A DNA stretch of 64,000 nucleotides from Trichocoleus desertorum ATA4-8-CV12 (GCA_019358975.1 JAHHIL010000019.1:1473-65472); one strand, 5' to 3'. Counted from the stretch's first letter, positions 30,177 to 48,133 are shown. Translations and numbers: made by a program. The notes: generated from the letters alone by a model not told the origin.

Positions 30177-30191
30177 GGAGGGGCGATCGCT

Positions 30192-30527: not shown

Positions 30528-30731
30528 CGCGATCGCATCTCCCAATACAACGAGTATCTCGAACAGGCACTTCCCCAATAGCGGAAGTTGCTCATTACTG
30601 AAGAGTTGATCGATGTATACAAGCTTAACACTGGGTAAATAGGGTATTAAACCAAAACGCTAATTTTCGTGGCATTTAAAGGTATTAGTACGGTTATCCG
30701 CCTAGCCTAGGAATTACATGGAGAAGAATAT

Positions 30732-31073: not shown

Positions 31074-31131
31074 AAGTAGGTTCTTTCAAGCTATTTTTTC
31101 TAATCTCTTTAAATGGCACGAAGTGAAACCT

Positions 31132-31160
31132 AAAAAGTAGGGTGGTAATGCTCACCCTAC
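31132..31160 (-). terminator. Rho-independent terminator downstream of chlB
   Basis: The minus strand reads GTAGGGTG-AGCATTAC-CACCCTAC followed by TTTTT, about 38 nt after the chlB stop. Confidence 0.7.
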
Positions 31161-31197
31161 TTCTACTAAAGGCTAGTTGTTAACAGCCTATCCTTAA

Positions 31198-32724
31198 TTA
31201 CGCACCTACTGCTTCTTTGGCTGCGTAAAGTACTTCAGCGGTAATTTCGCCAATGCCGCGATCGCGGGCGAATTTTTCGGTGTTGCGTTTCACCTTGCCA
31301 CGGACGAAACCGGGGATTTTGTTGAGTTCGGCTAGACCATCACGGCTCCAACCCAGGTCAGAGTCAGCCGAGATACCCTTGGTGATTACTTCCTTGGTGT
31401 CGTGACCGCCGAAGATTTCTAGCAAGTGGTCTTCCATGCCGAGGGTGAAGGAGTTGTAGACCAAATCGACGACTTGGTTAGTGCCTTCGTAACCTAGGAA
31501 GGGCTTGTAGCCGATGGGGAAGTTTTGGATGTGGATCGGGGCGGCAATCACACCACAGGGAATGTCAAGGCGTTTGCCGACGTGGCGTTCCATTTGGGTG
31601 CCGAAGATGGCAGAAGGTTCTAATCGGGCGATCGCATCTCCAATTGCGCCATTATCATCGCTGATCAAGATTTCGTCGCAGTACTCGCTGACTTGCTCCC
31701 GGAACCAATCGGCATCGTACTTGCAATAGGTGCCCGCTAGGACTACGTGAATGCCCATTTCGCGAGCCAGAATCTTGGTCATGGCGGCGGCGTGGGTATT
31801 GTCGCCAAAGACTACGGCTTTTTTGCCAGTGAGGTTTTGGCAGTCGATGGAGCGAGAGAACCAGGCAGCTTGTGAGACGTGCAGGGTTTGCTCGTTGATA
31901 AAGTTTTCGTAGTCAACGTTGGCTCCTTGCGCGTTGATCACTTGTTGGATCTTGCGGATGCAACGGGCTGTTTCTACCACACCCATCGGCGTAATATCGA
32001 CATAAGGCGTGCCAAACTCTTGCTCTAGATAGCGGGCTGTCATCAAACCGAGTTCACGATAGGGCACCAAGTTAAACCAAGCTTTGGGCAGGTTCTTGAG
32101 GTTGAGAACGGATGCGCCTTCTGGGATGATTTCGTTGATCTCAATGCCCAAGTCAGCCATTAACCGCTTCAGCTCGGTACAGTCGTGGTGGCTATGAAAC
32201 GCCAGGGTGGAGATGCCAATGATGTTAACCGAGGGCTTGGCAGTTTTGCCTTCCGGGAGGTCGCCTTGTTTGCGGGCCTTCGCGATGTAGTACTGCACGA
32301 TTTGCTCTAGGGTGCGATCGGCAGCCTGCATTTCGTTGAAGCGATAATGATTCACGTCCGCTAGCAGAACATCCGCTACTGAAGCTTCTTGGGCGCGATC
32401 AACGAAGTTTTGCAGATCTTCTTGCAGAATGCTGGAGGTGCAGGTTGGGGTCAGCACAATCAGGTCAGGATGCTCTTCGGCGTCTTTGCGGGTGATGTTG
32501 TCCACCACTTTTTCTTGAGAGCCTCGCGCCAAGACGTTGCGGTCTACGATGCTGGCGGTGACTGGGGTAAAGTCTCGCTCTCGCTCTAGCATCGATCGCA
32601 TGACGTTAAAGTAGTCGTCTCCTAGGGGAGCATGCATGATGCCATGCACATTTTTGAAAGAACTGGCAATACGGAGAGTGCCAATGTGGGCGGGGCCTGC
32701 GTACATCCAGTAAGCCAATTTCAT
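31198..32724 (-). CDS. chlB: Light-independent protochlorophyllide reductase subunit B
   Basis: The N-terminus ([62 protein letters not shown]) is essentially the conserved ChlB N-terminus. Length is 508 aa. Confidence 0.95.
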
Positions 32725-33103
32725 ATTCGGTGCTCTCCCTTAATCTCGGTTGTTACCGACCACTCCGCTGAGGGAATTTGCAGAAGTCAAAACCTTTGGC
32801 AAAAAGTTTTTACACCTTCTGGCACTAAGGAAGTAACGGCTCAGCGATCGCAATCGTTGGGTGTGATGGGTTGTTAGTGTGAGTCGCTTTTGATTGTCTC
32901 AAAGATGGACGGAACGTGAGTGTGTGCACATTGGGGTTGGGGAGAGTGGGCGATCGCTGGAAACCCTTATCTGCCTTGAGATGGAGGGGCTATTTGTGTG
33001 GCTTAATTGGTGGGGGAACTGCAATGATTTTTAACTGTTTGTGATTTGGCTTAAAACGATTAGTCGTACGGGTTTCTGAGTTTGGCATTGTGAAATCCGA
33101 GCC

Positions 33104-33154
33104 TTGGGGGCACTCGCCCCCAAACCCCCGCTGAAGGACGGTTGCGTCCCTCAG
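33104..33154. repeat. GC-rich hairpin repeats
   Basis: ttgggggcACTCgcccccaa is a perfect 8-bp stem, and ctgaaggacGGTTGCgtccctcag is a second hairpin. Confidence 0.6.
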
Positions 33155-33211
33155 ACTCCCTCCAAACGAAGTTGAGTGTGAGTGTTTCGGGTCTTGGACG
33201 GGGTTAGCTAT

Positions 33212-33356
33212 TGGCTGCTGACTTCTGGCTGCTGACTTCTGGCTCCTTACTTTCACCCCTCACCCCTCATCCTTCATCCTTATTCACCCCTCACCCCTCA
33301 CCCCTCATCCTTCATCCTTATTCACCCCTCACTCCTCTCCCCTCACTCCTCACCCT
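33212..33356. repeat. Tandem 14-mer (x2) followed by a heptamer-periodic CAYCCYT (STRR-like) repeat tract
   Basis: tggctgctgacttc occurs twice (33212-33239). From about 33252 the tract reads cacccct cacccct catcctt catcctt att, repeated, and it runs into the rph stop codon. Confidence 0.8.
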
Positions 33357-34072
33357 TCTGCCAATGCTTTCCGCTGGGCTTCAAATAGTTCCTTAATGCC
33401 TTTTTCTGCTAGGTCCATCATCTGATTCAGGTGGGTGCGGCTAAAGGCTCCTTCTTCGGCAGTGCCCTGGACTTCGATCACGCCGAGTTGGTCGTTGAGG
33501 ACGACGTTGAGGTCTACTTTGGCGGCTACGTCTTCGACATAGTTAAGGTCGAGGATGGGTTGGTCTTCTAGCCAGCCGACTGAGACTGCGGCGATTTGGT
33601 GGCGGATGGGCGATCGCTCTAGGTCTCCTTTTTGGATCAATTGGGCGATCGCGTCTTGGAGGGCGACAAAGCCTCCGGTGATGGCAGTGGTGCGGGTACC
33701 AGCATCGGCTTGCAGCACGTCAGCATCGATCGTGATTGTGCGTTCGCCTAAAGCTTCCATATCGAGAGCAGCCCGTAAGCTCCGTCCAATTAAGCGCTGG
33801 ATTTCTTGGGTGCGCCCAGACAGCTTAAGAAATTCTCGTTCATGGCGTTGCGGAGTGGCACCGGGGAGCATGCGGTATTCTGCGGTCAGCCAACCTTGGC
33901 CTTTGCCTTCCAAAAATCTAGGTACTTTGGGTTGAATGGTGACAGTACAAAGGACTTGGGTATCACCGCAACGGGTCAGTACGGAGCCAGCGGCAAACCG
34001 TGTAAAGTGACGCTCAAAGCTGATGGGCCGCAGTTGATCGCTTTGGCGACCATCAGTTCGTTGGAAAGCCAT
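33350..34072 (-). CDS. rph: Ribonuclease PH
   Basis: [20 protein letters not shown]..., [14 protein letters not shown], and [19 protein letters not shown]. Start set to ATG 34072. Confidence 0.9.
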
Positions 34073-34160
34073 TTTTGTGAGAAGTGCTTCTGAATTCACG
34101 CCTTTGCCTCAAATGCCTCAGTTAGGATACTGCAATGGATGATTTGGAGTATCCTGCCGA

Positions 34161-34709
34161 TCATTGTAGGTGCTGCAAAATTTCCTGATGCACTTGTTCG
34201 ATGGGTTGGTTGCTGTTAATTTTCAGCAGGCGATCGCGGTGTTCGTAATAGTCCAGCATTGGCATGGTGTAGTCTCGAAACGACTCGATCCGGTGCTGAA
34301 TCACCTCTGGCGTATCGTCGCCGCGTTGTCGAGCGATTGAGCGGCTCATCAATACATCATCTGGAGCGTCTAGCCAAATCGCCCAGTTCAGATTCTGATT
34401 TAGATCTCCTAAGAGAAAATCTACTTCCTCGGCTTGGAAAGCAGTGCGTGGATGTCCTTCTAGTAACCATCCTTGCTGGGTGTCCGCCTGCAAGAGGCGC
34501 TGCCGTATTAGTTGGATCATGGTTTCGTCGGGAACCAGTTCGCCTTTTTCGACAAAAGACTGGACTTGTTGACCTAAAGGAGTTTGAGCTGCGATCGCTT
34601 GCCGTAATATCTCCCCCGTAGAAATTAAGGGAATCTCAAAATGGCGGCATAGGTGCTGAGCCTGAGTACCTTTCCCTGCTCCTGGCCCACCTAGAATTAC
34701 CAATCTCAC
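34161..34709 (-). CDS. adk: Adenylate kinase (short form)
   Basis: LGGPGAGKGTQA P-loop and ISTGEILR. At 182 aa it has no long LID insertion. Confidence 0.88.
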   Translation of the reverse strand: MRLVILGGPGAGKGTQAQHLCRHFEIPLISTGEILRQAIAAQTPLGQQVQSFVEKGELVPDETMIQLIRQRLLQADTQQGWLLEGHPRTAFQAEEVDFLLGDLNQNLNWAIWLDAPDDVLMSRSIARQRGDDTPEVIQHRIESFRDYTMPMLDYYEHRDRLLKINSNQPIEQVHQEILQHLQ

Positions 34710-34813
34710 TGCCCTGCGCTCCTATCTGCGTTGAGAATTAAATTCTTCTCATTATTAGCTGAAAAGCTGCTTACCCTTTAGGCCTGTCGTCATAATCTGT
34801 CGTTGCTTGCTTC

Positions 34814-35293
34814 TTGTTGTTAGCCCCCGACATCAGCAACACCGAAAGCGCCATTCCGATTCGGGCTGTGGCTCGTTGGTTGGATAAGCTCAAGTTAGGG
34901 GTACTGCCTACTCGCGAACAAACTCAATGCTATGTTGCGTCCAGCAGCCTGTTTAACTTGATGGCTCTAATTTCTTTTGAAAAAGATACGGTCGCAGGAA
35001 ATTTAGGAGATAAAGACAGAAGCGAAGAAATCCAGAAAAATAGTGATGTCCTGTGGTTCTTTCGGCAGCTCCAGAATCGCCAAGCGCCGCTACTATGCCA
35101 AGAATTACCTGGTAAGCATTTGGAGCCAGTAGGGGTGCAAGTTGGCCCATATGTAGTTGACCTCAATCCTTTAGACAAATTCATCGAACCGATCGCTCAA
35201 CGTTGGTTAGAGAGATTGACATCCTCTCCCAGCAACCCTAACGGGTATGCAAGGAGATTCCTTGGGTTGCCCCAAAGATTTCCTGCTTCATAG
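34814..35293 (+). CDS. Hypothetical protein whose 3' end runs into the TnpB element (probably disrupted)
   Basis: 159-aa ORF with a TTG start. The last 20-25 codons or so overlap the 3' end of tnpB on the opposite strand, so the native C-terminus is probably lost. Confidence 0.3.
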   Translation: MLLAPDISNTESAIPIRAVARWLDKLKLGVLPTREQTQCYVASSSLFNLMALISFEKDTVAGNLGDKDRSEEIQKNSDVLWFFRQLQNRQAPLLCQELPGKHLEPVGVQVGPYVVDLNPLDKFIEPIAQRWLERLTSSPSNPNGYARRFLGLPQRFPAS

Positions 35294-36545
35294 CCAGCCA
35301 GCTAGACTGAGTGACCTCAGCCCCCGCTGCATCGACTCCACAGGCATTTTCAACCACCCGTTGCCCACGGGCAGAGATGACTTGAGCTGCGGCAATATCC
35401 CTTGGCTTCACTGAGCGACATTCAGGACATTGATGCAGCCTCACACTCAGATCCTTGCGGACTTCGGCACCACAGTCAGGACACTCCTGAGACGTGCCAC
35501 GAGCATCCACCTTGGCGTAGTAAACATCTCGCTTCCAGCACACCCAAGGAAGGATTTGATTGGTGAACTGACCGAAGCCAGCATCCAACGTGTGCTTACC
35601 TAGCATCCCTTTCGCCATCATGCGGAAGTCCAAATCTTCCACAAACACCATCCCAGCGTGGTCACAAAGATGATGGGCTAATTTGAAATGCCAGTCCTTG
35701 CGAGTGTCGGCAATGCGCTGATGCACTCTCGCGATCTTCCGGTGCAGCTTGTGCCAGTTAGCGCTCCCCTTGCGCTTGGTTTCAAGTCTGCGTTGCAGCA
35801 ATTTCAGCTTGCGGTGCAGCTCATTAAAAAAGCGGGGACGCTTGACTTGTTCGCCGTCGGAAGTGGAGAGGAAATATTCAAGGCCCACATCAATCCCAAC
35901 GGCAAGGCCGTGAGCCATCGTCGCCGGAATCTCAACCTCCGCCTCTAAGCTCAACATGGCGAAATAGCCCGATGCTTTGCGAACGATTCGCGCCTGCTTC
36001 ACCTGGAACAACGACGGAATTTCCCGTGACCACCGCACTTTGACCAGTCCTAACTGAGGGAGCTTGATACCTTCGCTGGAGATGCAGTGTTTCAGCATCT
36101 GCGGGAAGACAAAACTCTTCATCCGATTCGGCTTTTTGAAGCGTGGCAATCCAGACCGCTTTAACCGCCATGACTCCCAAGCGGTTTCCAGTTTTCTGAG
36201 AACCTGCTGAAGGACTTGGGCATTGATGGTTTTCAGCCTGGGGAAATCGGCCTTAGCAGCCGTTAGTGCTTTGCACTGGCGAGCATAGGCAGGAAATGGT
36301 GCATCGGCTGGCAAGATGAACTCCTGCCGAATGGAGCAGGCATTCACCGAAGACTTCCGAGAATCCAGCCAGTCTTTGCGTTCCCGCAGGGCAAAATTCC
36401 AGACATTGCGGCACACATCTAAGATGTGCTCAATCTCTAAAACCTGCTCCGCAGTTGGCTCTAGCTTAAATTCCCACGTCATGATTAGCATGACTTCATT
36501 ATGCCCTACAAAACACAGTTTTACTTTGTAGGTTTACTAAATGGC
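35200..36545 (-). mobile_element. Solo-TnpB IS200/IS605-type (IS1341-like) element; ends are approximate
   Basis: The tnpB CDS plus short flanks. The exact left and right end hairpins could not be fixed by eye. No Y1 transposase gene is present. Confidence 0.6.
35238..36491 (-). CDS. tnpB: TnpB (IS200/IS605-family OrfB, RuvC-like RNA-guided nuclease family)
   Basis: The RuvC triad contexts are GIDVGLEYF, VFVEDL and PRDIAAAQVI. The zinc finger is CPDCGAEVRKDLSVRLHQCPECRS, and the N-terminus is the typical WEFKLEPTAEQ. No tnpA is adjacent. Confidence 0.9.
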   Translation of the reverse strand: MLIMTWEFKLEPTAEQVLEIEHILDVCRNVWNFALRERKDWLDSRKSSVNACSIRQEFILPADAPFPAYARQCKALTAAKADFPRLKTINAQVLQQVLRKLETAWESWRLKRSGLPRFKKPNRMKSFVFPQMLKHCISSEGIKLPQLGLVKVRWSREIPSLFQVKQARIVRKASGYFAMLSLEAEVEIPATMAHGLAVGIDVGLEYFLSTSDGEQVKRPRFFNELHRKLKLLQRRLETKRKGSANWHKLHRKIARVHQRIADTRKDWHFKLAHHLCDHAGMVFVEDLDFRMMAKGMLGKHTLDAGFGQFTNQILPWVCWKRDVYYAKVDARGTSQECPDCGAEVRKDLSVRLHQCPECRSVKPRDIAAAQVISARGQRVVENACGVDAAGAEVTQSSWLAMKQEIFGATQGISLHTR

Positions 36546-36936
36546 TCCCTGCGGTCGTGCATCGCCTCACCACCCCCTAACCGCTAACGCGGTATAGGCG
36601 GAGCACTACGATGGTCTTTGGTAGCAACTGAATTTCTCCGCAAGTTGCGCCGACGAGAGCAAAATTTGTCCTAGAACGGGTGCCAGTAAGCCTACGACTA
36701 CACAAGCCCCAATCGCTTGGGATCGCACTATTGAGCCGCAGAATCTAAGATGAAAATAATTCAATCTTTTGCGGCTATAACTCTAATAAATAGAAATAGG
36801 CGCGATCGGCGTGGAACATTAGCAAAGCTACCTCAGATTTAGTCACTCCTCGGAGATGGATGCAAGATTGACGAACTGAGAAGCTAGAACCTAAACAAGT
36901 TCCAAGGGTAGGCAGTAGAGGCAGAGGGCACAGTGA

Positions 36937-38091
36937 ATGGAATTGACGACAACCTTAAAAGGGCAAACGGTTCGGAATGCAGTGCGAGAAGTAGGGATTA
37001 ACCCAGACTACTGGTATGCCGTGGGTTGGGCTAACAAGCTGAAGTCGAACGAAGTAATGCCCGTCCAAATTTGGCAGCAGGCGATCGCGGTTTACCGAGA
37101 TGCGACAGGCCAGCTCCATGCCCTCGAAGATGCCTGCCCTCATAAAGGTGTGGCGCTACACAAAGGCAAAGTGCATGGCACCAACTTGGCTTGTCGCTAT
37201 CACGGCTGGGAGTTTGATGGCCAAGGCGACTGCGTCAAAATTCCTTATTTCCCGCCTGAGCAAAAATTGCCCTGTGCCCAAGCACGGAGCTACCCCATCC
37301 AAGAGAAGTACAATATTATTTGGATTTTTCCGGGCGATCCAGCGCTGGCTGAAACTTTTTCTCCCCCAGAGATTCCAGAGTTTGACCATCCTGACTTTTT
37401 CATGGTGCCCGTGACAGGACACTTTAAATCTCATTTCTCTATCTGCAACGAAAACTCAATGGATGTATTTCATGGGTTTTTGCACGAAAATTTGCAGGGT
37501 TGGTTCGATCCCATTCTGACCAGCTTGCGAGAAACTGAAAACAGCGTCTGTGCCGATTATCAGGTGTCTTATAAAGGAAAGCTGGCGAAATTTCTGGGTT
37601 TGGCTGAGGAAGCTGAGCAAGTGACGACCAAGACTGTTTCTGTAGAATATCGTTATCCGCACTATCAAAGTTCCTTGGAGGGCGTTTCTAGTCTCTACTT
37701 AATGCGATTGCCGATTGGCCCCACCCAAAGCGCTTCTTTTGCCATGTTCTTTTTGCGGGTGAAGTTGCCCAAGTGGTTTTTGCGATCGCTGGAGCCTGTG
37801 CTACAACCGTTGCTAGAGCAGCACGTGTTCATGAAATTTCTCAATCAAGATATTGAGATGATGGAAAGTGAGCAGCGCCGTTACCTAGACAACCCGCAGC
37901 GCCGCTATGTGGAAGTAAATCCAGCGATCATTGCAGTGCAGCGATTAATTGTCCGGCAGTATGAGCAATTTGTGCAAAAATCTAGTCAATCAGAAGATCC
38001 CGAAAGTGGGAACCCAGACAACTTTGTTTCTTTCTCTAAGGCTATGGCTTCTAGCCCAGCCGAACTAACTACAGAAAGCCCAGTCGGATGA
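36937..38091 (+). CDS. Rieske [2Fe-2S] non-heme-iron oxygenase (PAO/Tic55-like)
   Basis: Rieske motif CPHKG...(17 aa)...CRYHGW, and a mononuclear-iron motif in NENSMDVFHGFLHEN. Confidence 0.8.
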   Translation: MELTTTLKGQTVRNAVREVGINPDYWYAVGWANKLKSNEVMPVQIWQQAIAVYRDATGQLHALEDACPHKGVALHKGKVHGTNLACRYHGWEFDGQGDCVKIPYFPPEQKLPCAQARSYPIQEKYNIIWIFPGDPALAETFSPPEIPEFDHPDFFMVPVTGHFKSHFSICNENSMDVFHGFLHENLQGWFDPILTSLRETENSVCADYQVSYKGKLAKFLGLAEEAEQVTTKTVSVEYRYPHYQSSLEGVSSLYLMRLPIGPTQSASFAMFFLRVKLPKWFLRSLEPVLQPLLEQHVFMKFLNQDIEMMESEQRRYLDNPQRRYVEVNPAIIAVQRLIVRQYEQFVQKSSQSEDPESGNPDNFVSFSKAMASSPAELTTESPVG

Positions 38092-38320
38092 AGGCAACTA
38101 TACCAGCCGTTTCTCAAACAGATGTAGTCCGGAACCGTACTCTAGCCTCTACCCAGTACTTTGGGTCACAAACAAGTTGGTTGCATGAAGTAGTCCAGAC
38201 GCTCTGGATTGCTTGCATTTGGTGTTGTATTAGACCTGGATGATGGGTACTTTGCTAGGAAAATACACTGTTATGCCAGAGACGATAAACTATCTGGGAA
38301 TAAGGTGAGGGGAGTTTACT

Positions 38321-39601
38321 GTGCAAGTTATTAAAGAATATGTTCAGCGCTGGTATGAGAGCGAACTTGAACCGGATGAATACATCTGCCACGCCAAGCA
38401 AGGAAATTTAGTTGAGCTTGAGGATGTCAAAACAGGCGATCGCCGCACAGCTTTAACCTTCTGCACCAATGATGTCCTGGGACTGGTTCAAGCAGAGTCC
38501 GTTAAACAGGCGGCGATCGATAGCATTCTGCAATACGGCACTTCCAACAGTTCTTGCTCCGTCTTGAGTGGTCGCATTGATTTGCATCGGCAGCTCGAAG
38601 ATGAAATTTCGGCCTTCAAGCATTTGCCCCACACCCAACTATTTCTAAATGCTTGGATGGCAATGCAAGCTCTCATGGACGCTTTCTGTCATCTAGCCAT
38701 TCCTGTGCCCGGTTTTCAGCATACACGAGAAACATTAATTCTCACTGACGTACTGAACCACGGTTGCATTGTGTCCGCGATCTCGAATGCAGGGACTCGC
38801 TCTGGTAAGCTGTTTGGTCATAGCCCGCGTGTGCGAGTGCGTGCCTACCGCCACTGCGATGTCAACGATTTGGCCACCAAACTGCGCCGTTATGCTAGAC
38901 CCGAAGACCGCATCATGGTGGTTTCGGATGCAGTGTTCTCGATGGATGGCGATATTGCTCCTCTGCCCGACATTCTCAATGTGATGCAGAATTACGAAGG
39001 CAGCGTCTTAATGATGGATGAAGCTCATGCCAGCGGTGCGATCGGTGCCACTGGGAGAGGTATCTATGAGCACTTCAATCTCACCCCTCAGCAAGCGATC
39101 GAGCGGGGCGTGGTGCCGCTGATCATGACGACTTTCTCTAAGTTTGCGGCGTCGGCTGGAGCAGCGATTAGTAGTCACGTTGCTGAACTAAAGCCATTGT
39201 TAAATGTGTCACCCACCTCAATTGGCACCATTTCTCTTCCCCCACCGCTCACCGCTGCGGCTTTAGAGAGCATCAAAATAGTGCGACGGGAGCCAGAACG
39301 GGTGCGCCAGTTGCAGGAAAATACAGCTTACTTGCGATCGCGCTTGGCTGAGCAAGACTTTCTGGCGATTGGCGAAACCAACGTCGTTCCCGTCATTTTG
39401 CCGTCCGAAATCAACCCGAAGCTATTTGGTCGGTTGTTGCTAGAAAACTACGGCATTTGGGTGTCTCCCATTTGGTTCATTGCTAAGCCTCGTCTCCGGG
39501 TAACTGTCAACGCCCTCCATACCAAAGAGGAAATGGATCGATTGGTGGCAGGGTTAGTAGCAACTCGAAATGTGTTGTATAAACCAACAATCAGTGCTTA
39601 G
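38321..39601 (+). CDS. Alpha-oxoamine synthase family PLP enzyme (serine-palmitoyltransferase/AONS-like)
   Basis: Fold-type I motifs: SDAVFSMDGDIAPL, MDEAHASGAIG, and the PLP lysine in TTFSKFAASAGA. As far as I recall, a TFSK context is typical of SPT-like members. GTG start. Confidence 0.75.
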   Translation: MQVIKEYVQRWYESELEPDEYICHAKQGNLVELEDVKTGDRRTALTFCTNDVLGLVQAESVKQAAIDSILQYGTSNSSCSVLSGRIDLHRQLEDEISAFKHLPHTQLFLNAWMAMQALMDAFCHLAIPVPGFQHTRETLILTDVLNHGCIVSAISNAGTRSGKLFGHSPRVRVRAYRHCDVNDLATKLRRYARPEDRIMVVSDAVFSMDGDIAPLPDILNVMQNYEGSVLMMDEAHASGAIGATGRGIYEHFNLTPQQAIERGVVPLIMTTFSKFAASAGAAISSHVAELKPLLNVSPTSIGTISLPPPLTAAALESIKIVRREPERVRQLQENTAYLRSRLAEQDFLAIGETNVVPVILPSEINPKLFGRLLLENYGIWVSPIWFIAKPRLRVTVNALHTKEEMDRLVAGLVATRNVLYKPTISA

Positions 39602-39676
39602 TTCGATAAAATACTGCAAGGGTAGAAAAAACACTCTACTCTTGCCATAAAATCTTTAGTTTCAAAAGTTAAAAAA

Positions 39677-40828
39677 ATGGTGGCTACTCAGGCTTCGGCG
39701 TATCAAGTTCGAGCGGTTACGACACCAGCAGATCAAGACCTGTTTCTGGATGTGCCAGCGCGAGTTTATGCCAATGATCCGAACTGGGTGCCATCTTTAC
39801 GTAGCAGTGTTGCCAAGCAATTCGCATCTAGTAACCCGTTCTTGCAGTACGGCAAGTTTCAGCAGTTTGTGGTGGTGACTGAGGGAGCCAAAGGACCAGA
39901 GGCGGTAGGGCGTGTGGTAGCAGCAGTGAATCAGCGCCTGATTGAGCGGGAAGGGCAGCAGATTGGCCTGTTCGGCTTTTTTGAGTGCATTGCTGATTTT
40001 GCGATCGCTCAAGCATTGCTCGATGCTGCCTCTGACTGGTTGCGTCAACAAGGCATGACAGCAGTGCGGGGACCGATTGATCTCTCGACCCACAACAGTT
40101 GCCTGTGGTTAGTCGATGGCTTTGACTCACCGCCAATGGTGATGATGCCCTACAACCCTGCTTACTATCCAGAATTTATCGAGCGATTGGGATGGCAGAA
40201 GGCTAAAGATGCCTACGCTTACGACTTCCCTCTAGACGAGCCTTTACCGACTGAATTTGAGAAAGCCTATCGCATTGCCTGTAAGTCAGGCGTAACATTC
40301 CGACCGCTACGAACGAAAGGTGAGGGTTTTGAGCAAGACTGCCTTAGTCTCTACCGCTTGTTCAGCACCGCCTTTGCAGGTAACTGGAGTTCTACGCCCC
40401 GCACCCAGGAAGAATTCCTAGAAGAAGCCAAAGACCTGCAAAGCTTAGTTGATCCAGATGTTTTTCCGATCGCGGAATATAACGGCGAAATGATTGGTTT
40501 CTTCATGGGCTTGCCCGACTACAACATTCCCCTTAAGCAGGTGGGCGGCAAGCTCAATTGGCTGGGCATTCTCAAGTTTCTTTGGTATCGGCGGCAAATC
40601 AACCAAGGCCGAGTCATTGCTATCTGCTCCTTGCCAGAATATCGTCGCAAAATGGTACCTTTAGCTTTGATTTACCTGGGTATGAGCGGTGGTATCCAAA
40701 AAGGTAAACCCTATCAGCGAGCTGAACTGTCCTGGGTTTACGAAGATAACTTCCCATCGCGCAAGCTGATTGAAGCATCCGGTGGCAAGATTTATAAAAC
40801 GTACCGCATCTACGAAAAAGCAATATGA
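39677..40828 (+). CDS. Large GNAT-like acyltransferase-fold protein
   Basis: 383 aa. The MPYNPAYYPEFIE motif and the C-terminal region (RVIAICSLPEYRRKMVPLALIYLG...AELSWVYEDN) look like an acyl-CoA N-acyltransferase core. It shares an ATGA overlap with the next gene. Confidence 0.5.
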   Translation: MVATQASAYQVRAVTTPADQDLFLDVPARVYANDPNWVPSLRSSVAKQFASSNPFLQYGKFQQFVVVTEGAKGPEAVGRVVAAVNQRLIEREGQQIGLFGFFECIADFAIAQALLDAASDWLRQQGMTAVRGPIDLSTHNSCLWLVDGFDSPPMVMMPYNPAYYPEFIERLGWQKAKDAYAYDFPLDEPLPTEFEKAYRIACKSGVTFRPLRTKGEGFEQDCLSLYRLFSTAFAGNWSSTPRTQEEFLEEAKDLQSLVDPDVFPIAEYNGEMIGFFMGLPDYNIPLKQVGGKLNWLGILKFLWYRRQINQGRVIAICSLPEYRRKMVPLALIYLGMSGGIQKGKPYQRAELSWVYEDNFPSRKLIEASGGKIYKTYRIYEKAI

Positions 40829-41796
40829 AGGCGCTAGTCACCGGAGCAAACGGCTTTACCGGATCTCACCTGGTTCGCTTGCTAGAACAGCGAGGCGATA
40901 CGGTAGTTGGGCTGGTTCGCAAATCGAGCAATCTATCGCGGTTGGCTGACGCTCAAGTGCAACTGGTTTACGGCGACCTCAGCGATCGCGCAGCCTTACG
41001 CACCGCCATGCAAGGGGTAGACAGGGTATTCCATACGGCTGCCTATGTAGAGTTAGGTTTAGTGAATGCGGCTGAAATGGAGCGAGTAAACGTGGCAGGA
41101 ACTCGCGCTGTCATGGAAGTTGCTAAAGAAATGAGCGTGGCCAAAATCGTTTATTGCAGCACGATCGGCGTATTTGGCGACACCCAAGGGCAAGTGGTGG
41201 ATGAAACCTTTCAGCGCACCCAAAAAGACTTTTCTTCCGCCTACGATCGCACCAAGTATGACGCGCAAGTATTTGTGGATCAGATGGCGCAGCAAGGATT
41301 ACCAGTCGTGAGTGTCATGCCCTCTGGAATTTTTGGCGCGGATGATCCGCACTTTATTCCGGTATTGCGGCAGTTTCTCAAAGGTGGACTGAAACTCTGG
41401 GCAGGGGGCGATCGCGTCACCGGAGTTGTCCATGTTGATGATTTGGCGATGGCCATGATCTTGGCAGCAGAAAAAGCTCCAACTGGGGAGCACTACATTA
41501 TCTCGGCAGGAGATCTAACCACGCGGGAAATGTTCCAAATTGTCGGCCAACAGGCTGGCGTTCCTGCTCCAGCAGAGGCTCCCAAAGCCCTCGTAAGACT
41601 GGTAGGAAATATTTTGGACCCCATCGGACGACTGTTCTCCTGGCAACCCCCCCTCAGTCGAGAACGGGTGCATTACGTCTACGATCGCTGTGTACGAGTT
41701 GATGCTGCTAAAGCCCGACGCGAGTTAAACTGGCAACCCCGCTCAGTCGCAGACACCTTGACTGAAATCGCTCAAGCAGTGCAGAAGACGCTTTAG
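40825..41796 (+). CDS. NAD(P)-dependent epimerase/dehydratase-family (extended SDR) reductase
   Basis: VTGANGFTGSHLV Rossmann motif and a YxxxK motif (SAYDRTKYDAQ). 323 aa. Confidence 0.8.
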   Translation: MKALVTGANGFTGSHLVRLLEQRGDTVVGLVRKSSNLSRLADAQVQLVYGDLSDRAALRTAMQGVDRVFHTAAYVELGLVNAAEMERVNVAGTRAVMEVAKEMSVAKIVYCSTIGVFGDTQGQVVDETFQRTQKDFSSAYDRTKYDAQVFVDQMAQQGLPVVSVMPSGIFGADDPHFIPVLRQFLKGGLKLWAGGDRVTGVVHVDDLAMAMILAAEKAPTGEHYIISAGDLTTREMFQIVGQQAGVPAPAEAPKALVRLVGNILDPIGRLFSWQPPLSRERVHYVYDRCVRVDAAKARRELNWQPRSVADTLTEIAQAVQKTL

Positions 41797-42088
41797 CTTC
41801 TAGTAATGCTTTCGTTTTGGAACCACCACTGGTTTCTGTGAAATTTCTATGAAATGCCGACTATTGGGGATGATCCCTATGGGGAGTGGGTAGATTGCCG
41901 CTATGCGATCGCCTATCTTACCAGTGAGAATACAGATATAACAAAGCAGCCAATTGGCATTTAACACACCAAGCCTCGCCTAATATAGAGGCTGACAGGA
42001 GTTATAACGAGGCCGATTTGCTCCTCCGTCAACCGGAGTGACAACAAGCAACAGGTTCTCGACAAACTGTATGGAATAAATCACGGGT

Positions 42089-42122
42089 AGGGGCGCAGCA
42101 TTCTGTGCCCCTATCTAGTTTT
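42089..42122. terminator. Hairpin between the convergent SDR and ABC-ATPase genes (possible bidirectional terminator)
   Basis: AGGGGCGCA-GCATTC-TGTGCCCCT is a 9-bp stem including one G-T pair. It is followed by ATCTAGTTTT on the plus strand, and the minus-strand T tract is weaker. Confidence 0.45.
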
Positions 42123-42159
42123 AAGCCGTATGTAAAGTTGCATCAGCTGAAATGAGGGA

Positions 42160-42933
42160 CTAAGCGGCGTATTGCTGATTAAGCATGCCGTCTTCCAGGT
42201 TCACCACTTGATCTGCTACATCCATGATGCGCGGGTCATGAGTCACCATCAGCACTGTACGACCGCCCTCTTTGGCAAGATTTCGCAGCAACTCAATCAC
42301 CGCATGGCCGCTACGAGAGTCTAGAGCCGCAGTGGGTTCATCTGCCATAATCAGAGGTGGATCGCCTGCCAAAGCCCGCGCGATCGCCACTCGTTGTTGC
42401 TGCCCACCCGATAGCTCACGAGGTAGTAGCCTCACCTTGTCTTGCAGACCCACCTGTTCTAGTAAGTTTTGAGCCTGATGGCGGCGGTTATTGCGTCCCC
42501 GGAGACCTTTGACCTTGAGTGCCAATTCCACATTCTCAAGAGCAGTCAGGGCAGGAAACAGATTAAATCCTTGAAAAATAAAACCAATATTCTCCAAGCG
42601 GAACTGGGCCAGTTGGGTACGAGACATTTTCGTGATTTCTTGTCCCAACAGGTGAACACTGCCACGGCTAGGTGTTAAAATCCCCGCTAGGATAGAGAGC
42701 AGTGTGGTTTTTCCAGAGCCGGAAGGACCCATCAACAGGTAGATATCCCCTCTCTGAATATCCAGATCAATATCTTTGAGGGCGTAAAAGCGTTCAGCAC
42801 CAGACTGGAAGACCATTTCCACCCCACGGGCAGTGATGGCATTCGTTTTAACATGGGTAGAGCCTAGTGCGGTAGAAGCAACCTGACTCTGAACCTGGGC
42901 ATATTCAGGGATACGAATTTGAGAAGCAGTCAT
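42160..42933 (-). CDS. ABC transporter ATP-binding protein (DevA/MacB-LolD type)
   Basis: Walker A GPSGSGKTT, signature LSGGQQQRVAIARAL, and Walker B IMADEPT. Confidence 0.88.
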   Translation of the reverse strand: MTASQIRIPEYAQVQSQVASTALGSTHVKTNAITARGVEMVFQSGAERFYALKDIDLDIQRGDIYLLMGPSGSGKTTLLSILAGILTPSRGSVHLLGQEITKMSRTQLAQFRLENIGFIFQGFNLFPALTALENVELALKVKGLRGRNNRRHQAQNLLEQVGLQDKVRLLPRELSGGQQQRVAIARALAGDPPLIMADEPTAALDSRSGHAVIELLRNLAKEGGRTVLMVTHDPRIMDVADQVVNLEDGMLNQQYAA

Positions 42934-43110
42934 CCGCTTAGGTTTTTAATCAACATTGGTTAAATGAAAAGGAGTGCGAACTTTTGGCAGCGATGCATCG
43001 GTAGATTCAGATGCTTAGATGCCGAATCGAGATTTCATCGCTGTAAAGTCATACTATCTAGTGTATCCAGGTTCTTTAAGTTCTCCGTATTCCTATCGTG
43101 AAGTTTAAGG

Positions 43111-44385
43111 TTATGCCTTGAACACGATGGCAGGGTCAACTCGTGTCACTTTCTGAATGGCAAACAGTGCGGAGCTAACGCACATCACAATTGTGATGCC
43201 AAAAACTCCAAAGGCTGTCGCGGGTGTAATTAAAATCAGGATTCCTTGGGTTGCCGATGTCCACGTACTCACTCCAAAGCACAGGACTAAGCTAGGAAGG
43301 TAGCCTAAAACGGCCATCCATAAGGCTTGTTCAACAATCACGCTGTATATTACCCAATCTGACGCTCCCATCGCTTTGAGAGTTCCGAACTCTCGTAAGT
43401 GATCTGAGACAGAGGAGTAGAGAATTTGGCCCACAATCACGACCCCAACAATGATGCCAACGGCGGCTCCTAGACCAAGAACAAAGCCAATGCCAGTGCG
43501 TTTTTGCCAATAGTTACGGGTTTTTGCAGCCATTTCGGCTCGGGTATAGGCATGGGTATTTGGCAGTGTAGTTTCCAGCCGTTTTTTAAGAACTGCTAGA
43601 TCCTGGTTGGGTTGAGCGCGAATCAAGATATAGGTGATGGGGTCGCCGAGGTTTAGGCGTCGGGGTGTCGTAGGAGAAGCATTGAGCGGGCCAGAGCCAG
43701 CAGGGGCGGTTTCATAGGTGTTGGTGCATTGCACTTCATCAGAGCCAGTCTGCGATCGGCATTGCAAGTTAGAACTAACGGGAGCATTCACATAGGCATT
43801 GGCATTTTCTAGGGAGGTAAATAGGAAGCTACTAGACACCATTGACTGGGTGCCACGAGTGAGGCCAATGAGTCGAGCCGGAAGTGATCCGATCGCGCCT
43901 TGAGCATTCGGGGCTTTCAGATTCAGAGAGTCTGCATTGGTTTCATCCACCATGACCGAAAAAGGCTGTTTGAGGGCGCTGAGGTTGCCTTGGGTGATGT
44001 TTTGCGGCGCAAACAACTGTCCCTGGGGATCAAATCCGACGACTCGCACTGGAGCAATCTCGTCTTGAGAGTTGCGCCAAAGAGCTGGTCTAAAGATCAA
44101 GGCTTCCGCTCGCCCTACCCCGGTTACTTGCTGCGCGACCCTCAGCTGATCGACGGCAAGAGGCAACGTTAGCTCAACCTGCACCATATCTTTGGAAGCA
44201 ACCCAAAGATCAGCCTGGGACTGGTCAATTAAGAGGGTGGTAGAACGAGTAAACCCTCTGAGAATCCCAGTTTGAATGGTGACTAGGCTGACCGCAAACA
44301 TGATGCCAGCTTGCGCGACCAGGAATCGAGGAATATCCTCAAACAAATTTTTGCGGGCGATGGAAGCCATGAAGGGGAGTAACAA
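43111..44385 (-). CDS. ABC exporter permease (DevC/FtsX-like)
   Basis: An N-terminal TM helix, a large periplasmic loop, and a C-terminal FtsX-like cluster of three TM helices (GTLKAMGASDWVIYSVIVEQALWMAVLGYLP). Confidence 0.8.
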   Translation of the reverse strand: MLLPFMASIARKNLFEDIPRFLVAQAGIMFAVSLVTIQTGILRGFTRSTTLLIDQSQADLWVASKDMVQVELTLPLAVDQLRVAQQVTGVGRAEALIFRPALWRNSQDEIAPVRVVGFDPQGQLFAPQNITQGNLSALKQPFSVMVDETNADSLNLKAPNAQGAIGSLPARLIGLTRGTQSMVSSSFLFTSLENANAYVNAPVSSNLQCRSQTGSDEVQCTNTYETAPAGSGPLNASPTTPRRLNLGDPITYILIRAQPNQDLAVLKKRLETTLPNTHAYTRAEMAAKTRNYWQKRTGIGFVLGLGAAVGIIVGVVIVGQILYSSVSDHLREFGTLKAMGASDWVIYSVIVEQALWMAVLGYLPSLVLCFGVSTWTSATQGILILITPATAFGVFGITIVMCVSSALFAIQKVTRVDPAIVFKA

Positions 44386-44444
44386 TTGAGTGCCTTATTA
44401 TCAGCCTAAGAGATGGCAAGGCAAACTTCTGCCAAACAAACCAC

Positions 44445-46355
44445 TTACTCGACCGTCACAGATTTGGCGAGGTTTCTCGGCTGGTCTACGTCTAAGCCAC
44501 GACGGGCCGCGATGTGATAGGCCAGCAACTGTAGCGGAATCACGGCCAAAATGGGCGAGAGTAACTCTTCCACAACTGGCACAGGCAATAAGTCATCGAA
44601 GATCTCGGCAGATTCGCTGGCCTCTAAAGGAGTTACCCCAATCAGACGGGCATCTCTGGCTTTGGCTTCTTGAGCGTTGGAGAGCACTTTTTCGTAAACC
44701 AAACCGGGTGTGGCGATCGCAACGACAGGCACCTTAGCATCTAGTAGCGCGATCGGCCCGTGCTTCATTTCCCCCGCAGGATAACCTTCGGCATGGATGT
44801 AGCTGATTTCTTTGAGTTTCAAGGCTCCCTCTAGGGCGATCGGGAAGTTGATCCCTCGCCCTAAGAAAATAAAGTCCTGAGTTTCTGCGAAGTCGTGAGC
44901 GAGTTCTTCGATATAGCGCTCTTGGCTTTCCAGAATTAGCTCGATTTGTGCTGGAAGCTGCCGTAGCCCTAGCAAGATTTTTTCTAAACGAGCGGCTGAT
45001 AGCGTTTGTTGGTGGTAAGCCAAATCTAAAGCTAGGGCATAGAACGCCATCAACTGCGCCACAAAAGTTTTAGTCGCAGCCACTCCAATCTCGATCCCTG
45101 CGTGGGTATCAATCACTTGAGGCACCATATGACCTAAGGAGCTTTCGGGACGGTTGGTGATCCCTAGCAAGCGTGCCTCAAACCGGGGGGATTGCCCAGT
45201 ACGACGCTGCTTTTCCATCTCCAGTGCGGCTAGTGTATCTGCGGTTTCACCGGACTGAGTTACGCCAATGGTGAGCGTGTTGGGGGTCAGAGGCGAAGGA
45301 GCATAGCGAAACTCGGAGGCATACTGCACCATCGTTGGGATGCCAGCCAACTGCTCAATGAGGTACTTGCCTACTAAACTGGCGTGCCAACTGGTGCCAC
45401 AAGCGACAATTTGCACCTGTTTCAAATCGCTGTACAACTCAGGTGACAAGTTGAGTTTGATCGGTGAGGTAGAAGATTCAGTCCCCCAACTGCTGTCTAA
45501 ATAAGCTTCTAGGCAAGCCCGCACTACCCCAGGCTGCTCGTAGATTTCCTTGAGCATGAAGTGTTTGAAACCTTGCTTCTCCACCATGACTGGGTTCCAG
45601 TTGAGGGTACGGGGAGTTTTTCGCAAGCGATCGCCCGCAAAGCTATAGACTTCCACACCCAAGGGAGTTAGACGAGCCAGTTCGCCATTTTCCAAGGTTA
45701 AGACGGCGCGGGTATGGGGCACTAAAGCGGGGGTATCGGAAGCGCAGAAGAATTCCCCTTGACCGAAACCGATCGATAACGGCGCTTGCTGTCGCGCCAC
45801 AATCAGTTCGTCCGGGAAGTCAGCGCTAATTACCGCGATCGCAAAGGCTCCTTGTAATTGGTTGACCGCTTGGCGCACCGCTTCTAGTAAAGGTGAGTGT
45901 TGGGCCAAGGTCGGCATCGAACTAAGATCAGCCTTTAATTTTTCTAGCAGTTCAGCAATCAGATGCGGGATTACTTCCGTATCAGTGTCAGAGCGGAAGG
46001 TGTGGCCTCTAGCAATTAATCCTTCTCGCAATTCTCGATAATTCTCGATAATGCCGTTCTGTACCACAGCCAAACGGCGGGCTGTGTCCATGTGGGGGTG
46101 GGCATTATATTCTTCTGGTTTGCCGTGAGTCGCCCAACGAGTGTGACCGATGCCAAGCTGAGCTGGGTTCTCAATGCCTTCTAGTTTTTCTTGGAGATTG
46201 TGCAGCTTGCCCTTGGCGCGGACGCAGTGGATCTCGCCTTCCAAAACGGTTGCGATCCCCGCAGAATCGTAGCCGCGATACTCCAGTTTCTGTAACCCTG
46301 CCAACAAAATGTCACTTGCTGCTTGGGTACCGATATAGCCAACAATTCCGCACAT
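44445..46355 (-). CDS. glmS: Glutamine--fructose-6-phosphate aminotransferase
   Basis: MCGIVGYIG N-terminal nucleophile, two SIS domains, and the C-terminus NLAKSVTVE. Confidence 0.95.
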   Translation of the reverse strand: MCGIVGYIGTQAASDILLAGLQKLEYRGYDSAGIATVLEGEIHCVRAKGKLHNLQEKLEGIENPAQLGIGHTRWATHGKPEEYNAHPHMDTARRLAVVQNGIIENYRELREGLIARGHTFRSDTDTEVIPHLIAELLEKLKADLSSMPTLAQHSPLLEAVRQAVNQLQGAFAIAVISADFPDELIVARQQAPLSIGFGQGEFFCASDTPALVPHTRAVLTLENGELARLTPLGVEVYSFAGDRLRKTPRTLNWNPVMVEKQGFKHFMLKEIYEQPGVVRACLEAYLDSSWGTESSTSPIKLNLSPELYSDLKQVQIVACGTSWHASLVGKYLIEQLAGIPTMVQYASEFRYAPSPLTPNTLTIGVTQSGETADTLAALEMEKQRRTGQSPRFEARLLGITNRPESSLGHMVPQVIDTHAGIEIGVAATKTFVAQLMAFYALALDLAYHQQTLSAARLEKILLGLRQLPAQIELILESQERYIEELAHDFAETQDFIFLGRGINFPIALEGALKLKEISYIHAEGYPAGEMKHGPIALLDAKVPVVAIATPGLVYEKVLSNAQEAKARDARLIGVTPLEASESAEIFDDLLPVPVVEELLSPILAVIPLQLLAYHIAARRGLDVDQPRNLAKSVTVE

Positions 46356-46580
46356 TTAACCCACAACTCCTGCCAAGCGATTACGGTTTAGGTGCCATCT
46401 GCCTTTCAGCGTCTTGGCTGTAGTGCGATCGCGCGATCGCCTTTTGAAGCAGATAAAACGCGAATATAACAGTCTTTAACGATCAACAGTGATTCATCAA
46501 GTACGGAAACCAGAAAGTGATCTACGCCTTAGTTGCGTGGCAAACGGGATAGATAGCTGCCCTAGGCACGTGAAATTACC

Positions 46581-46609
46581 AAAAAAATAGGGAGGTGTTT
46601 AGCCTCCCC
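46581..46609 (-). terminator. Rho-independent terminator downstream of psaC
   Basis: The minus strand reads GGGAGG-CTAAACA-CCTCCC followed by TATTTTTTT, about 65 nt after the psaC stop. Confidence 0.7.
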
Positions 46610-46674
46610 GATTTTTTGAACCCAAGTATATCGATAAACGCAGGATAAAAAAATGATGCGTTTAATGTCAGTTT

Positions 46675-46980
<306 letters not shown>

Positions 46981-47227
46981 CTAGCAAGTCTTAGAACTAA
47001 GACTCTAGAATCAACGCCAAGTTTACCGCAGTGCCAGAGATCGCTTCTGAGAAAGGTGGCAAAAATTTAAAGAATTTAATACAGACCGCAATAGTGGCTA
47101 GCTTTTTTGATAAAGCCTAGCGAAACTTGCCCTTGTCATTGTCTAGCCAGCTATTTTTGGCTTAGTAATGCCAGTTTTTGTAAACTGATCGTTACAAAAC
47201 GTAGGAAACAAGCTGGAGATTTTTGAC

Positions 47228-48133
47228 CTATACACCGAGCTTTTCCAAAACTGAGCGAGTAGAAACGATGTGATGGCTTAATCCCAACTTTTCTGGGGTA
47301 ATTCCTAAAGCTAGAGCCACGAGTTGAGGTAGGTGTAAAACTGGCAAGCCCAGTTTTTGACCGATGACTTGCTCTACTTCGGGTTGGCGAGAATCCAGAT
47401 TGAGGTGGCACAGGGGGCAAGGGGTGACCAAACAATCGGCCCCAGCCGCGATCGCCTCCTGAATATGATTGCCTGCCATTTGAAACGCCTGATTGGTAGC
47501 GTAACTAGAGAGCGGCCAGCCACAGCATTGAGTGCGTCCCCGATAGTAAATCGGTGTAGCCCCAATCGCCCGAAACACGTTCTCCATCGATTCTGGTTGG
47601 AAGGGGTCATCAAACGGAATGGAGGTTTGGGCGCGGAGTAGGTAGCAGCCATAAAATGCAGCGCAATTCAGCCCAGCCAGCTTACGGGTTACTTTGGCTT
47701 GCAGCGCCTCTAAGCCGTAGTCGCCCACCAACGCCCACAGCAAATGCTTCACCTCAGTACTGCCCTTGTAGGGTGAGCAGCCTTCTTGCTTCAATAAGCC
47801 ATTGATTTGATCAATATAGTCAGGATTGGTCTGTTGAGATTTTTTTAACCGTTCATCCACATGACCGATTACTCCTTGGCAAGTGCTGCAATGAGTAAGT
47901 AGGGGTAAATTTAATTCTTCTGCTAGGGCAATATTACGAGCATTGACGCTGTCTTCTAAGAGAGCGGACTCTTCCTTAAACGTACCGGAGCCGCAACAGG
48001 AAGCTTTTTTTAGTTCGACTAGCTCAATGCCTAAGGCTGTAGTTAGGGCTGCGGTTGAGAGATAAAGTTCCCGGCAGGCTCCTTGAGCCACACAGCCAGG
48101 GAAATAAGCGTACTTCAAAGACGGAGATGGCAT
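47228..48133 (-). CDS. CCG-domain protein (HdrB / SdhE-like heterodisulfide-reductase subunit B family)
   Basis: YFPGCVAQG...ASCCGSG and AAFYGCYLLR...TQCCGWP are two cysteine-rich CCG motifs. Confidence 0.7.
   Translation of the reverse strand: MPSPSLKYAYFPGCVAQGACRELYLSTAALTTALGIELVELKKASCCGSGTFKEESALLEDSVNARNIALAEELNLPLLTHCSTCQGVIGHVDERLKKSQQTNPDYIDQINGLLKQEGCSPYKGSTEVKHLLWALVGDYGLEALQAKVTRKLAGLNCAAFYGCYLLRAQTSIPFDDPFQPESMENVFRAIGATPIYYRGRTQCCGWPLSSYATNQAFQMAGNHIQEAIAAGADCLVTPCPLCHLNLDSRQPEVEQVIGQKLGLPVLHLPQLVALALGITPEKLGLSHHIVSTRSVLEKLGV

Follow-up and report, generated by a model that had tools for sequence, protein, structure and literature searches.

Does a cyanobacterial genome encode a pathway for a ceramide-like lipid? 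Cyanobacterial membranes are taught to be composed of four glycerolipids and lipopolysaccharide, and to our knowledge sphingolipids are not an accepted lipid class in these bacteria. The question is raised by a locus present on a 64,000-nt stretch of DNA from Trichocoleus desertorum ATA4-8-CV12 (GCA_019358975.1 JAHHIL010000019.1:1473-65472; hereafter referred to as the window), where four genes encode a Rieske-type oxygenase, an alpha-oxoamine synthase (AONS), an acyltransferase of the GNAT type and a short-chain dehydrogenase/reductase (SDR; Table 1). A preliminary description of this locus had interpreted the last three genes as the enzyme triad (Spt, bCerS and CerR) known from ceramide synthesis in Caulobacter, and had suggested that the Rieske oxygenase could modify the product. 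The analysis reported here leads us to view the four genes as a conserved cyanobacterial module for the synthesis of a ceramide-like amide lipid in which a long-chain amino-alcohol is N-acylated; we assign a probability of roughly 0.6 to this interpretation.

The anatomy of the locus can be read directly from the DNA. The positions of the reading frames, their location on the + strand and the 4-nt ATGA overlap (40825-40828) of the GNAT stop codon with the SDR start codon were all confirmed, as were the motifs quoted for the AONS (TFSK) and the SDR (GxxGxxG and YxxxK). The gap between the Rieske and AONS genes, previously put at about 230 nt, measures 229 nt. With a GC content of 0.49-0.51, the cluster has the same base composition as the surrounding DNA. 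Profile annotation with Pfam and NCBIfam covered the open reading frames (ORFs) of the window located at 29475-48133.

The connection to bacterial ceramide synthesis is provided by the 383-aa GNAT protein. Its match to the Pfam family Acetyltransf_1 is weak (22.6 bits), a sequence search of the PDB yielded no significant match, and NCBIfam contains no bCerS model; YghO, the Escherichia coli protein used here for comparison, itself matches no NCBIfam family. When aligned directly (blastp), YghO and the window protein are 28.6% identical over 378 of 383 amino acids (98% of the length; E 4e-52), and a tblastn search of plasmid records with the window protein recovered E. coli YghO with an E value of 1e-43. 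An AlphaFold2 model of the window protein (pLDDT 93.1; pTM 0.90) has tandem-GNAT proteins as its best Foldseek matches (7q3a, 2wpw and MshD 2c27; E 5e-16 to 1e-13), among them MAB_4324, the clavulanate tandem GNAT and mycothiol synthase.

YghO is connected to ceramide synthesis through the literature. The gene designated aca (CC_1154 in Caulobacter; yghO, ECD_02850, in E. coli) encodes an N-acyltransferase needed for dihydroceramide production, and epi (CC_1164; ECD_02852) encodes the reductase (PMC9386255). In a separate study, the Caulobacter genes bcerS and cerR carry the locus tags CCNA_01212 and CCNA_01222, respectively (PMC9393093). From the matching lists of five Caulobacter genes and the constant offset of +58 between the locus tags, we infer that CC_1154 and CCNA_01212 are the same gene. 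With YghO as the literature equivalent, the window GNAT protein belongs, judged by full-length homology and modelled fold, to the bCerS family. The assignment of a GNAT-type bCerS made in the preliminary description is thus supported by the YghO alignment, by the tandem-GNAT fold and by the genomic association with AONS and SDR genes. In the record from which YghO was retrieved, yghO adjoins the genes lptF-lptG-spt-acpR-epi-aasR, where aasR encodes a fatty-acyl-AMP ligase. This record (L084; E. coli PN43, NZ_MG591698.1) is labelled as a plasmid and carries glcABCDEFG, lptF/lptG-like genes and spt-acpR-epi-aasR-yghO; it looks like chromosomal DNA that was filed under a plasmid label.

The closest matches of the window GNAT protein are Trichocoleus proteins that are 94-95% identical to it. 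An exhaustive HMMER search gave a family of 6422 clusters (formed at 50% identity) at E <= 1e-3 and of 940 clusters at E <= 1e-30, whose members comprise about 375 amino acids. In three family members (P0179, P0201 and P0222) an N-terminal AONS is fused to the GNAT, and in a further one (P0226) the GNAT carries a C-terminal fatty-acyl-AMP ligase. Apart from these, one bCerS/YghO-family protein has a second GNAT-like copy (P0122), and a PilZ domain, which binds c-di-GMP, is present at the N-terminus of two others (P0157 and P0198); P0254 matches these two proteins in length and N-terminal extension. The PilZ fusions hint that bCerS/YghO-type acyltransferases might be under c-di-GMP control in some bacteria.

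A scan of one genome per species detected a relative of the GNAT protein in 388 species representatives, and the best 80 of these 388 loci (L001-L080) were inspected. The GNAT proteins encoded there are 74-92% identical to that of the window, and nearly all of the sequences are labelled as cyanobacteria or as unclassified metagenome-assembled genomes; the other three proteins of the module are 57-96% identical to their window counterparts in these 80 loci. Where enough flanking DNA was available, the AONS gene immediately precedes the GNAT gene in 42 of 69 loci, the SDR gene immediately follows it in 36 of 72 (19 of them with the same 4-nt overlap), and the Rieske gene immediately precedes the AONS gene in 37 of 47. 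The latter figure makes the Rieske gene, which the preliminary description had already counted as a part of the cluster, a conserved member of the module. Rieske-AONS and GNAT-SDR are conserved adjacent pairs (62-96% identity), and the clustering of the four genes exceeds chance.

The gene order is at times interrupted by mobile elements, namely TnpB or Uma2-type genes; in one locus (L032), a TnpB gene splits the Rieske and AONS genes. Some Scytonema/Heteroscytonema loci lack an adjacent AONS gene, and an ortholog of 426 amino acids is still found elsewhere on the contig or in the genome. The carriers of the module are mostly terrestrial, crust- or mat-forming filaments (Trichocoleus, Microcoleus, Coleofasciculus, Chroococcidiopsis, Scytonema, Phormidesmis, Symploca). 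A few contigs with 82-86% identity are labelled Sericytochromatia or Candidatus Obscuribacter, which probably reflects mis-binning. In Nostocales/Scytonema, the genes are found in a larger lipid super-cluster (L090 together with L067, both from Heteroscytonema crispum; L042; L048). One side of the H. crispum super-cluster is made up of genes for the SDR, the GNAT protein, a B12 radical SAM/DUF4070 protein, an Amidohydro_2 protein, an Mpo1-like protein and an FA_hydroxylase, while the divergent side comprises GH3, Rieske and AONS genes followed by a major facilitator superfamily (MFS) transporter gene. L090 also contains an inserted group II intron reverse transcriptase.

The preliminary comparison with other ceramide systems is extended by the finding that the AONS-GNAT-SDR order recurs in other phyla, at times as an AONS::GNAT fusion. 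In Streptomyces sp. NBC_01001, the three genes are followed by one for a condensation-domain protein, and in Rubrobacter radiotolerans by one for an LTA-synthase-family protein. Two metagenomic loci have the orders SDR, AONS::GNAT fusion and PAP2_3 protein (L081), and AONS, GNAT, MGDG_synth-type glycosyltransferase and SDR (L088), the GNAT of the latter being 41.6% identical to that of the window. Taken as a group, the GNAT proteins of these four operons are 33-42% identical to the window protein and 33-37% identical to YghO. No Rieske gene was found in the non-cyanobacterial AONS-GNAT-SDR operons examined, and it is therefore regarded as a cyanobacterial addition tied to the AONS.

Which reaction does the AONS catalyze? 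Pfam assigns the protein to Aminotran_1_2 (107 bits), and its pyridoxal phosphate (PLP)-binding lysine is residue 274 within the TFSK motif. An alignment with the serine palmitoyltransferase (SPT) from Sphingobacterium (SmSPT; 3a2b) revealed that the catalytic His (NH), Asp..His, Lys (TFSK) and C-terminal Arg residues are kept; these are common to all AONS enzymes and not specific to SPT. The identity of the window protein amounts to 29% with SmSPT, 25% with the Sphingomonas SPT, 28% with E. coli Spt, 30% with E. coli BioF and 26% with E. coli Kbl. Among PDB entries, chains of cysteate-C-fatty-acyltransferase (CFAT) match it less well (88 bits) than do those of SPT or BioF/Kbl. In a neighbor-joining (NJ) tree of 18 sequences (200 bootstraps), which holds no ALAS, CqsA, CFAT or canonical cyanobacterial BioF, the cyanobacterial AONS proteins form a long-branch clade of their own with 100% support, outside BioF/Kbl. 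This cyanobacteria-specific clade consists of 426-aa proteins, with the orthologs being 79-96% identical, and a search for a second AONS paralog across the window and 1.1 Mb of related loci found none.

A more trivial explanation would be that the AONS is a housekeeping BioF (or Kbl) enzyme with functionally unrelated neighbours. The best NCBIfam match of the protein is indeed bioF (TIGR00858), and the orthologs bear the label glycine C-acetyltransferase in the JGI annotation. The bioF score of 238 bits is, however, below the cutoff of 426 bits (Kbl: 184 bits, cutoff 460), and a verified SPT scores higher on the bioF model (334 bits). The PGAP annotation of the orthologs is a generic name only, and there are no bio genes next to the AONS gene or elsewhere among the ORFs at 29475-48133. 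Moreover, the AONS is linked to the GNAT gene at the frequency given above and is fused to it in other phyla. Npun_R3567, the BioF-type enzyme of Nostoc punctiforme, has 394 amino acids, its lysine at position 249 and 38.75% identity to SmSPT (PMC8895605), so that it and the window AONS are, by length, position of the lysine and identity to SmSPT, different proteins; this separation from canonical cyanobacterial BioF is an indirect one made via Table 1 of PMC8895605, as the plasmid search retrieved no canonical cyanobacterial BioF. Clustering with BioF or Kbl, named beforehand in the preliminary description as part of an outcome that would speak against the ceramide interpretation, was seen neither in the NJ tree nor in the bioF score, and we consider a housekeeping function most improbable.

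The SDR matches the Pfam families Epimerase (141 bits) and 3Beta_HSD (117 bits) and has its motifs in the form of GANGFTG (residues 7-13) and YDRTK. Its NCBIfam matches, all below the cutoffs, are HpnA (209 bits; cutoff 368), SdmB (148 bits; cutoff 600) and OleD (117 bits). HpnA is likewise the top family of the E. coli CerR ortholog, whose best set (HpnA/OleD/SdmB) is the same as that of the window SDR, and it is the best family of the SDRs encoded in the other operons, for which OleD and SdmB are among the top matches. Since CerR-type SDRs share this ranking, the window SDR can be placed close to them among the extended SDRs that act on lipids. In the nearest SDR families that have been characterized (OleD and SdmB/3beta-HSD), the reaction takes place at a 3-keto or 3-hydroxy group of a lipid, a point in favour of the ceramide-like reading. 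The Rieske protein matches the Pfam families Rieske (82 bits) and VanA_C (34 bits), and its motifs for binding of the Rieske center (CPH...CRYH) and the mononuclear iron (E-x3-D-x2-H-x3-H) are intact. SdmA, a sterol methyl oxidase, is its best curated family (full length; 233 bits, cutoff 600), and DdmC and SxtT are its matches in the PDB (about 82 bits).

These family assignments bring up a hopanoid or sterol-like triterpenoid as the substrate of an SdmA/SdmB- or HpnA-like pair formed by the Rieske protein and the SDR, with the AONS and GNAT proteins adding an amino-acyl decoration. SdmA, HpnA and SdmB are the best curated families of the two proteins, and the B12 radical SAM protein of some clusters weakly matches HpnR and HpnJ (57-59 bits). 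All scores of the Rieske protein and the SDR are nevertheless far below the respective cutoffs, and the HpnA/OleD/SdmB ranking is generic, because it is common to CerR-type SDRs. Nowhere are the Rieske and SDR genes direct neighbours; the former pairs with the AONS gene and the latter with the GNAT gene, and neither a cyclase gene nor hpn genes are present among the ORFs at 29475-48133. A triterpenoid product is therefore highly improbable.

Several points weigh against a ceramide-like lipid as the product of the module. The AONS falls below every SPT equivalog cutoff (SPT-CFB 175 bits, cutoff 640; BetaP 156 bits, cutoff 500; AlphaP 103 bits, cutoff 670), while E. coli Spt scores 600 bits on the BetaP model. 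In the NJ tree, the cyanobacterial clade is located outside the bacterial SPT group (62% support). The window AONS shares 25-33% identity with SPTs; the bCerS-linked SPT-like enzymes of the non-cyanobacterial operons, which are 50-58% identical among themselves and to SmSPT, reach 26-33% with the cyanobacterial AONS. With such values for every reference, the earlier designation of the AONS as Spt is not demonstrated. The SDR is only weakly related to CerR-type reductases: it shares 22.5% identity (55 bits) with the CerR ortholog of E. coli and reaches 62-103 bits with the SDRs of the Streptomyces, Rubrobacter, L081 and L088 operons, values to be set against 98-150 bits among the CerR-type proteins themselves, so that it is an outlier and the scores do not establish it as CerR. 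The bCerS comparison was made with E. coli YghO in place of the Caulobacter protein itself. The YghO family is very large, and some of its members occur in unrelated contexts (PilZ fusions; nucleotidyltransferase neighbours), and membership alone therefore does not fix a substrate. The cluster contains no dedicated acyl carrier protein (ACP) or acyl-ACP synthetase. Lastly, the only dedicated systematic study of sphingolipids in a cyanobacterium, N. punctiforme, was negative, the enzyme examined there being of the BioF type (PMC8895605). Of the proposed Caulobacter triad, the bCerS member thus stands, and the Spt and CerR members are analogous only. Since the AONS and the SDR are outliers, we do not file them as Spt and CerR, and the product is expected to differ from canonical dihydroceramide; the sequences suggest that it is probably a modified ceramide-like amide lipid.

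The same set of enzymes might also make a product that is not a membrane sphingolipid, such as a small signal of the acylated alpha-amino-ketone or alpha-hydroxy-ketone type like that of CqsA (CAI-1), an alkyl-pyrrole or alkaloid made by RedL/RedK/RedG-like enzymes, or another amino lipid, with the GNAT protein acylating a different amine. The AONS represents an orphan clade equidistant from the characterized AONS families, with a weak match to the CqsA-type model (95 bits). Both the SDR and the Rieske protein look like tailoring enzymes, of which SxtT (81 bits) is one, and tandem GNATs are also found in secondary metabolism, e.g., in that of clavulanic acid (2wpw). The GH3 protein of the extended clusters is related to OlsH (83 bits). 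On the other hand, an identity of about 80% across orders and a presence in 388 species are atypical of a specialised metabolite, the closest non-cyanobacterial GNATs adjoin SPT-like AONS and head-group enzymes (PAP2_3, MGDG_synth), and genes for a polyketide synthase (PKS), a non-ribosomal peptide synthetase or a methyltransferase are missing from the annotated ORFs of the window at 29475-48133. On balance, we regard such a product as unlikely, albeit as the likeliest of the alternatives.

Two specific clusters of this kind were considered and rejected. In the saxitoxin system, GNAT and AONS domains are combined in SxtA, Rieske enzymes are represented by SxtT and SxtH, and the SDR is SxtU. 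A saxitoxin-like cluster does not fit: the window GNAT is of the tandem bCerS type and not a loading domain, the enzymes are encoded by separate genes, and the four-gene module is conserved across orders. The RedL/RedK/RedG logic of the prodiginine type was discarded for lack of a PKS gene among the annotated ORFs at 29475-48133.

For the synthesis of a ceramide-like lipid, which we favour, the substrates, the sequence of steps, the role of the Rieske protein, the export and even the presence of such a lipid are all deduced from the gene content. The AONS would condense an amino acid (serine is one option) with a fatty-acyl thioester, probably an acyl-ACP, to an alpha-amino ketone, whose amine would be N-acylated by the bCerS-like tandem GNAT. 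The translationally coupled SDR would then reduce the 3-keto group, and the Rieske monooxygenase paired with the AONS could hydroxylate or desaturate the chain or the base. In bacterial ceramide synthesis, acylation precedes reduction (PMC11087976), and the arrangement into Rieske-AONS and GNAT-SDR pairs fits this published order. A neighbouring DevA/DevC-like ABC transporter pair would be available for a possible export of the product.

This pair is convergent with the cluster and located downstream of it, is followed by glmS (44445-46355) and has no gene for a DevB membrane-fusion protein at 42160-44385. Among the 80 related loci, 12 encode a DevA-family ATPase and 9 a DevC-type permease, in most cases shortly downstream of the SDR gene, and we tentatively associate the pair with the module as a system that may export its product. 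Directly upstream of the Rieske gene, a TnpB gene that is not repeated elsewhere in the window occupies a position where many other cyanobacteria have MFS, GH3 or FA_hydroxylase genes. Accessory genes in other cyanobacteria encode FA_hydroxylase, Mpo1-like, FA_desaturase, GH3, Amidohydro_2, B12 radical SAM and MFS proteins, none of which is found in the window. Except for Amidohydro_2, these represent lipid-modifying or export families (GH3 proteins are amide-lipid-synthetase-like), which favours the lipid interpretation. For the GH3 protein, the curated families offer a single relative, OlsH, which is a lyso-ornithine-lipid synthetase (PMC12493201).

Table 1. Genes and other features of the module and its flanks in the window.
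Feature	Position	Strand	Remarks
TnpB / IS605 OrfB-type gene	35238-36491	-	OrfB_IS605, Cas12f1-like TNB and HTH_OrfB_IS605 domains
Rieske [2Fe-2S] non-heme-iron monooxygenase, VanA/DdmC/SxtT/KshA type	36937..38091	+	384 aa; Pfam, NCBIfam, PDB
Spacer between Rieske and AONS genes, 229 nt	38092..38320	+	Shine-Dalgarno-like AAGGTGAGGGGAG before the AONS GTG start
Divergent alpha-oxoamine synthase (AONS)	38321..39601	+	426 aa; GTG start; PLP Lys274 in TFSK
Tandem-GNAT N-acyltransferase, bCerS/YghO family	39677..40828	+	383 aa; YghO alignment, fold
Extended SDR (GxxGxxG, YxxxK)	40825..41796	+	323 aa; putative lipid 3-ketoreductase
DevA-family ABC exporter ATPase	42160..42933	-	NCBIfam DevA 257.5 bits, cutoff 295.8
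DevC/MacB-type FtsX permease	43111..44385	-	NCBIfam DevC 160 bits, cutoff 290; Pfam FtsX, MacB_PCD

A search of positions 34000-45000 with Rfam detected no family at the gathering score. Promoter and terminator sites were no more common in our scan than in shuffled sequence, and the spacer at 38092-38320 contains no consensus site. In a 2-kb composition profile, the AT skew is strongly negative at 20001-22000 (-0.19) and at 32001-34000 (-0.16).

Full-text searches, which leave a supplementary listing in Stankeviciute et al. (2022) possible, returned no report of the module or of the Spt/bCerS/CerR set in cyanobacteria, and cyanobacteria are not mentioned in the supplements of PMC11334938. Published reports of sphingolipids in cyanobacteria concern two genera only, Scytonema and Moorea (PMC8895605). 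N. punctiforme is not among the top matches for the GNAT family and appears to lack the module. The Spt threshold of PMC11334938 (E <= 1e-70) would exclude the window AONS, and homology screens keyed to Spt would miss organisms of this type. The module provides a concrete and easily testable genetic handle, with a bCerS-family enzyme encoded in at least 388 species representatives.

A wider proposal, which we advance tentatively and rate at somewhat less than an even chance, is that a hitherto unrecognised class of sphingolipid-like membrane lipids is made by a large number of filamentous cyanobacteria, chiefly those of terrestrial or mat-forming habit. It would be assembled by an ancient bCerS-type GNAT, a lineage-specific AONS whose specificity for the amino acid or the acyl group may differ from that of SPT, a Rieske lipid oxygenase and an HpnA/SdmB-like ketoreductase, and would be elaborated in some lineages by GH3, FA-hydroxylase, Mpo1-like and B12 radical SAM proteins. 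If true, the known range of sphingolipid-type lipids in bacteria would come to include an ecologically dominant phylum of phototrophs, and the cyanobacterial envelope would gain a new lipid class, which might be useful as a biomarker of cyanobacteria that form crusts and mats. The enzymology would be new as well: the AONS proteins represent an orphan clade, and the Rieske oxygenase would use a sphingoid-type lipid as its substrate and thereby add a new Rieske-dependent modification to sphingolipid chemistry.

How, then, does the module compare with known systems? The SdmA/SdmB sterol C-4 demethylase and HpnA resemble it as the best-scoring curated families and as enzymes acting on hydrophobic lipids; in contrast to them, the window proteins score about one third to one half of the cutoffs, and the Rieske and SDR genes are not adjacent. 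With the capnine/sulfonolipid pathway of Bacteroidota, the module shares the logic of AONS condensation, ketone reduction and N-acylation, whereas nothing in the window cluster suggests a supply of cysteate. The operons of Actinomycetota and uncultured bacteria have the identical AONS-GNAT-SDR order, often with overlapping stop and start codons. Their AONS proteins are SmSPT-like (50-58%) and their SDRs resemble CerR (28-34% identity with the ortholog from E. coli), while the cyanobacterial AONS (about 30%) and SDR (about 22-32%) are outliers in comparison with them. These operons lack a Rieske gene and possess head-group enzymes (PAP2_3, glycosyltransferase, LTA-synthase-family protein) that are not present in the window.

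From the ceramide pathway of Caulobacter (CCNA_01220/01212/01222) and E. coli B (spt-acpR-epi-aasR, yghO), the module differs in that its AONS and SDR were not recognized as orthologs by any of the tests run, in that the cluster lacks AcpR and AasR, and in that a Rieske monooxygenase partners the AONS; its host phylum has no established sphingolipids. The proteobacterial loci examined are in turn devoid of the GH3, FA_hydroxylase, Mpo1-like and B12 radical SAM genes seen in other cyanobacteria. What the two systems have in common is that an AONS, a tandem GNAT of the same family and an extended SDR are encoded together, that the coupling of GNAT and SDR in the window fits an acylation before reduction, and that an ABC exporter is encoded nearby, for which the proteobacterial equivalent is the pair of LptF/G paralogs.

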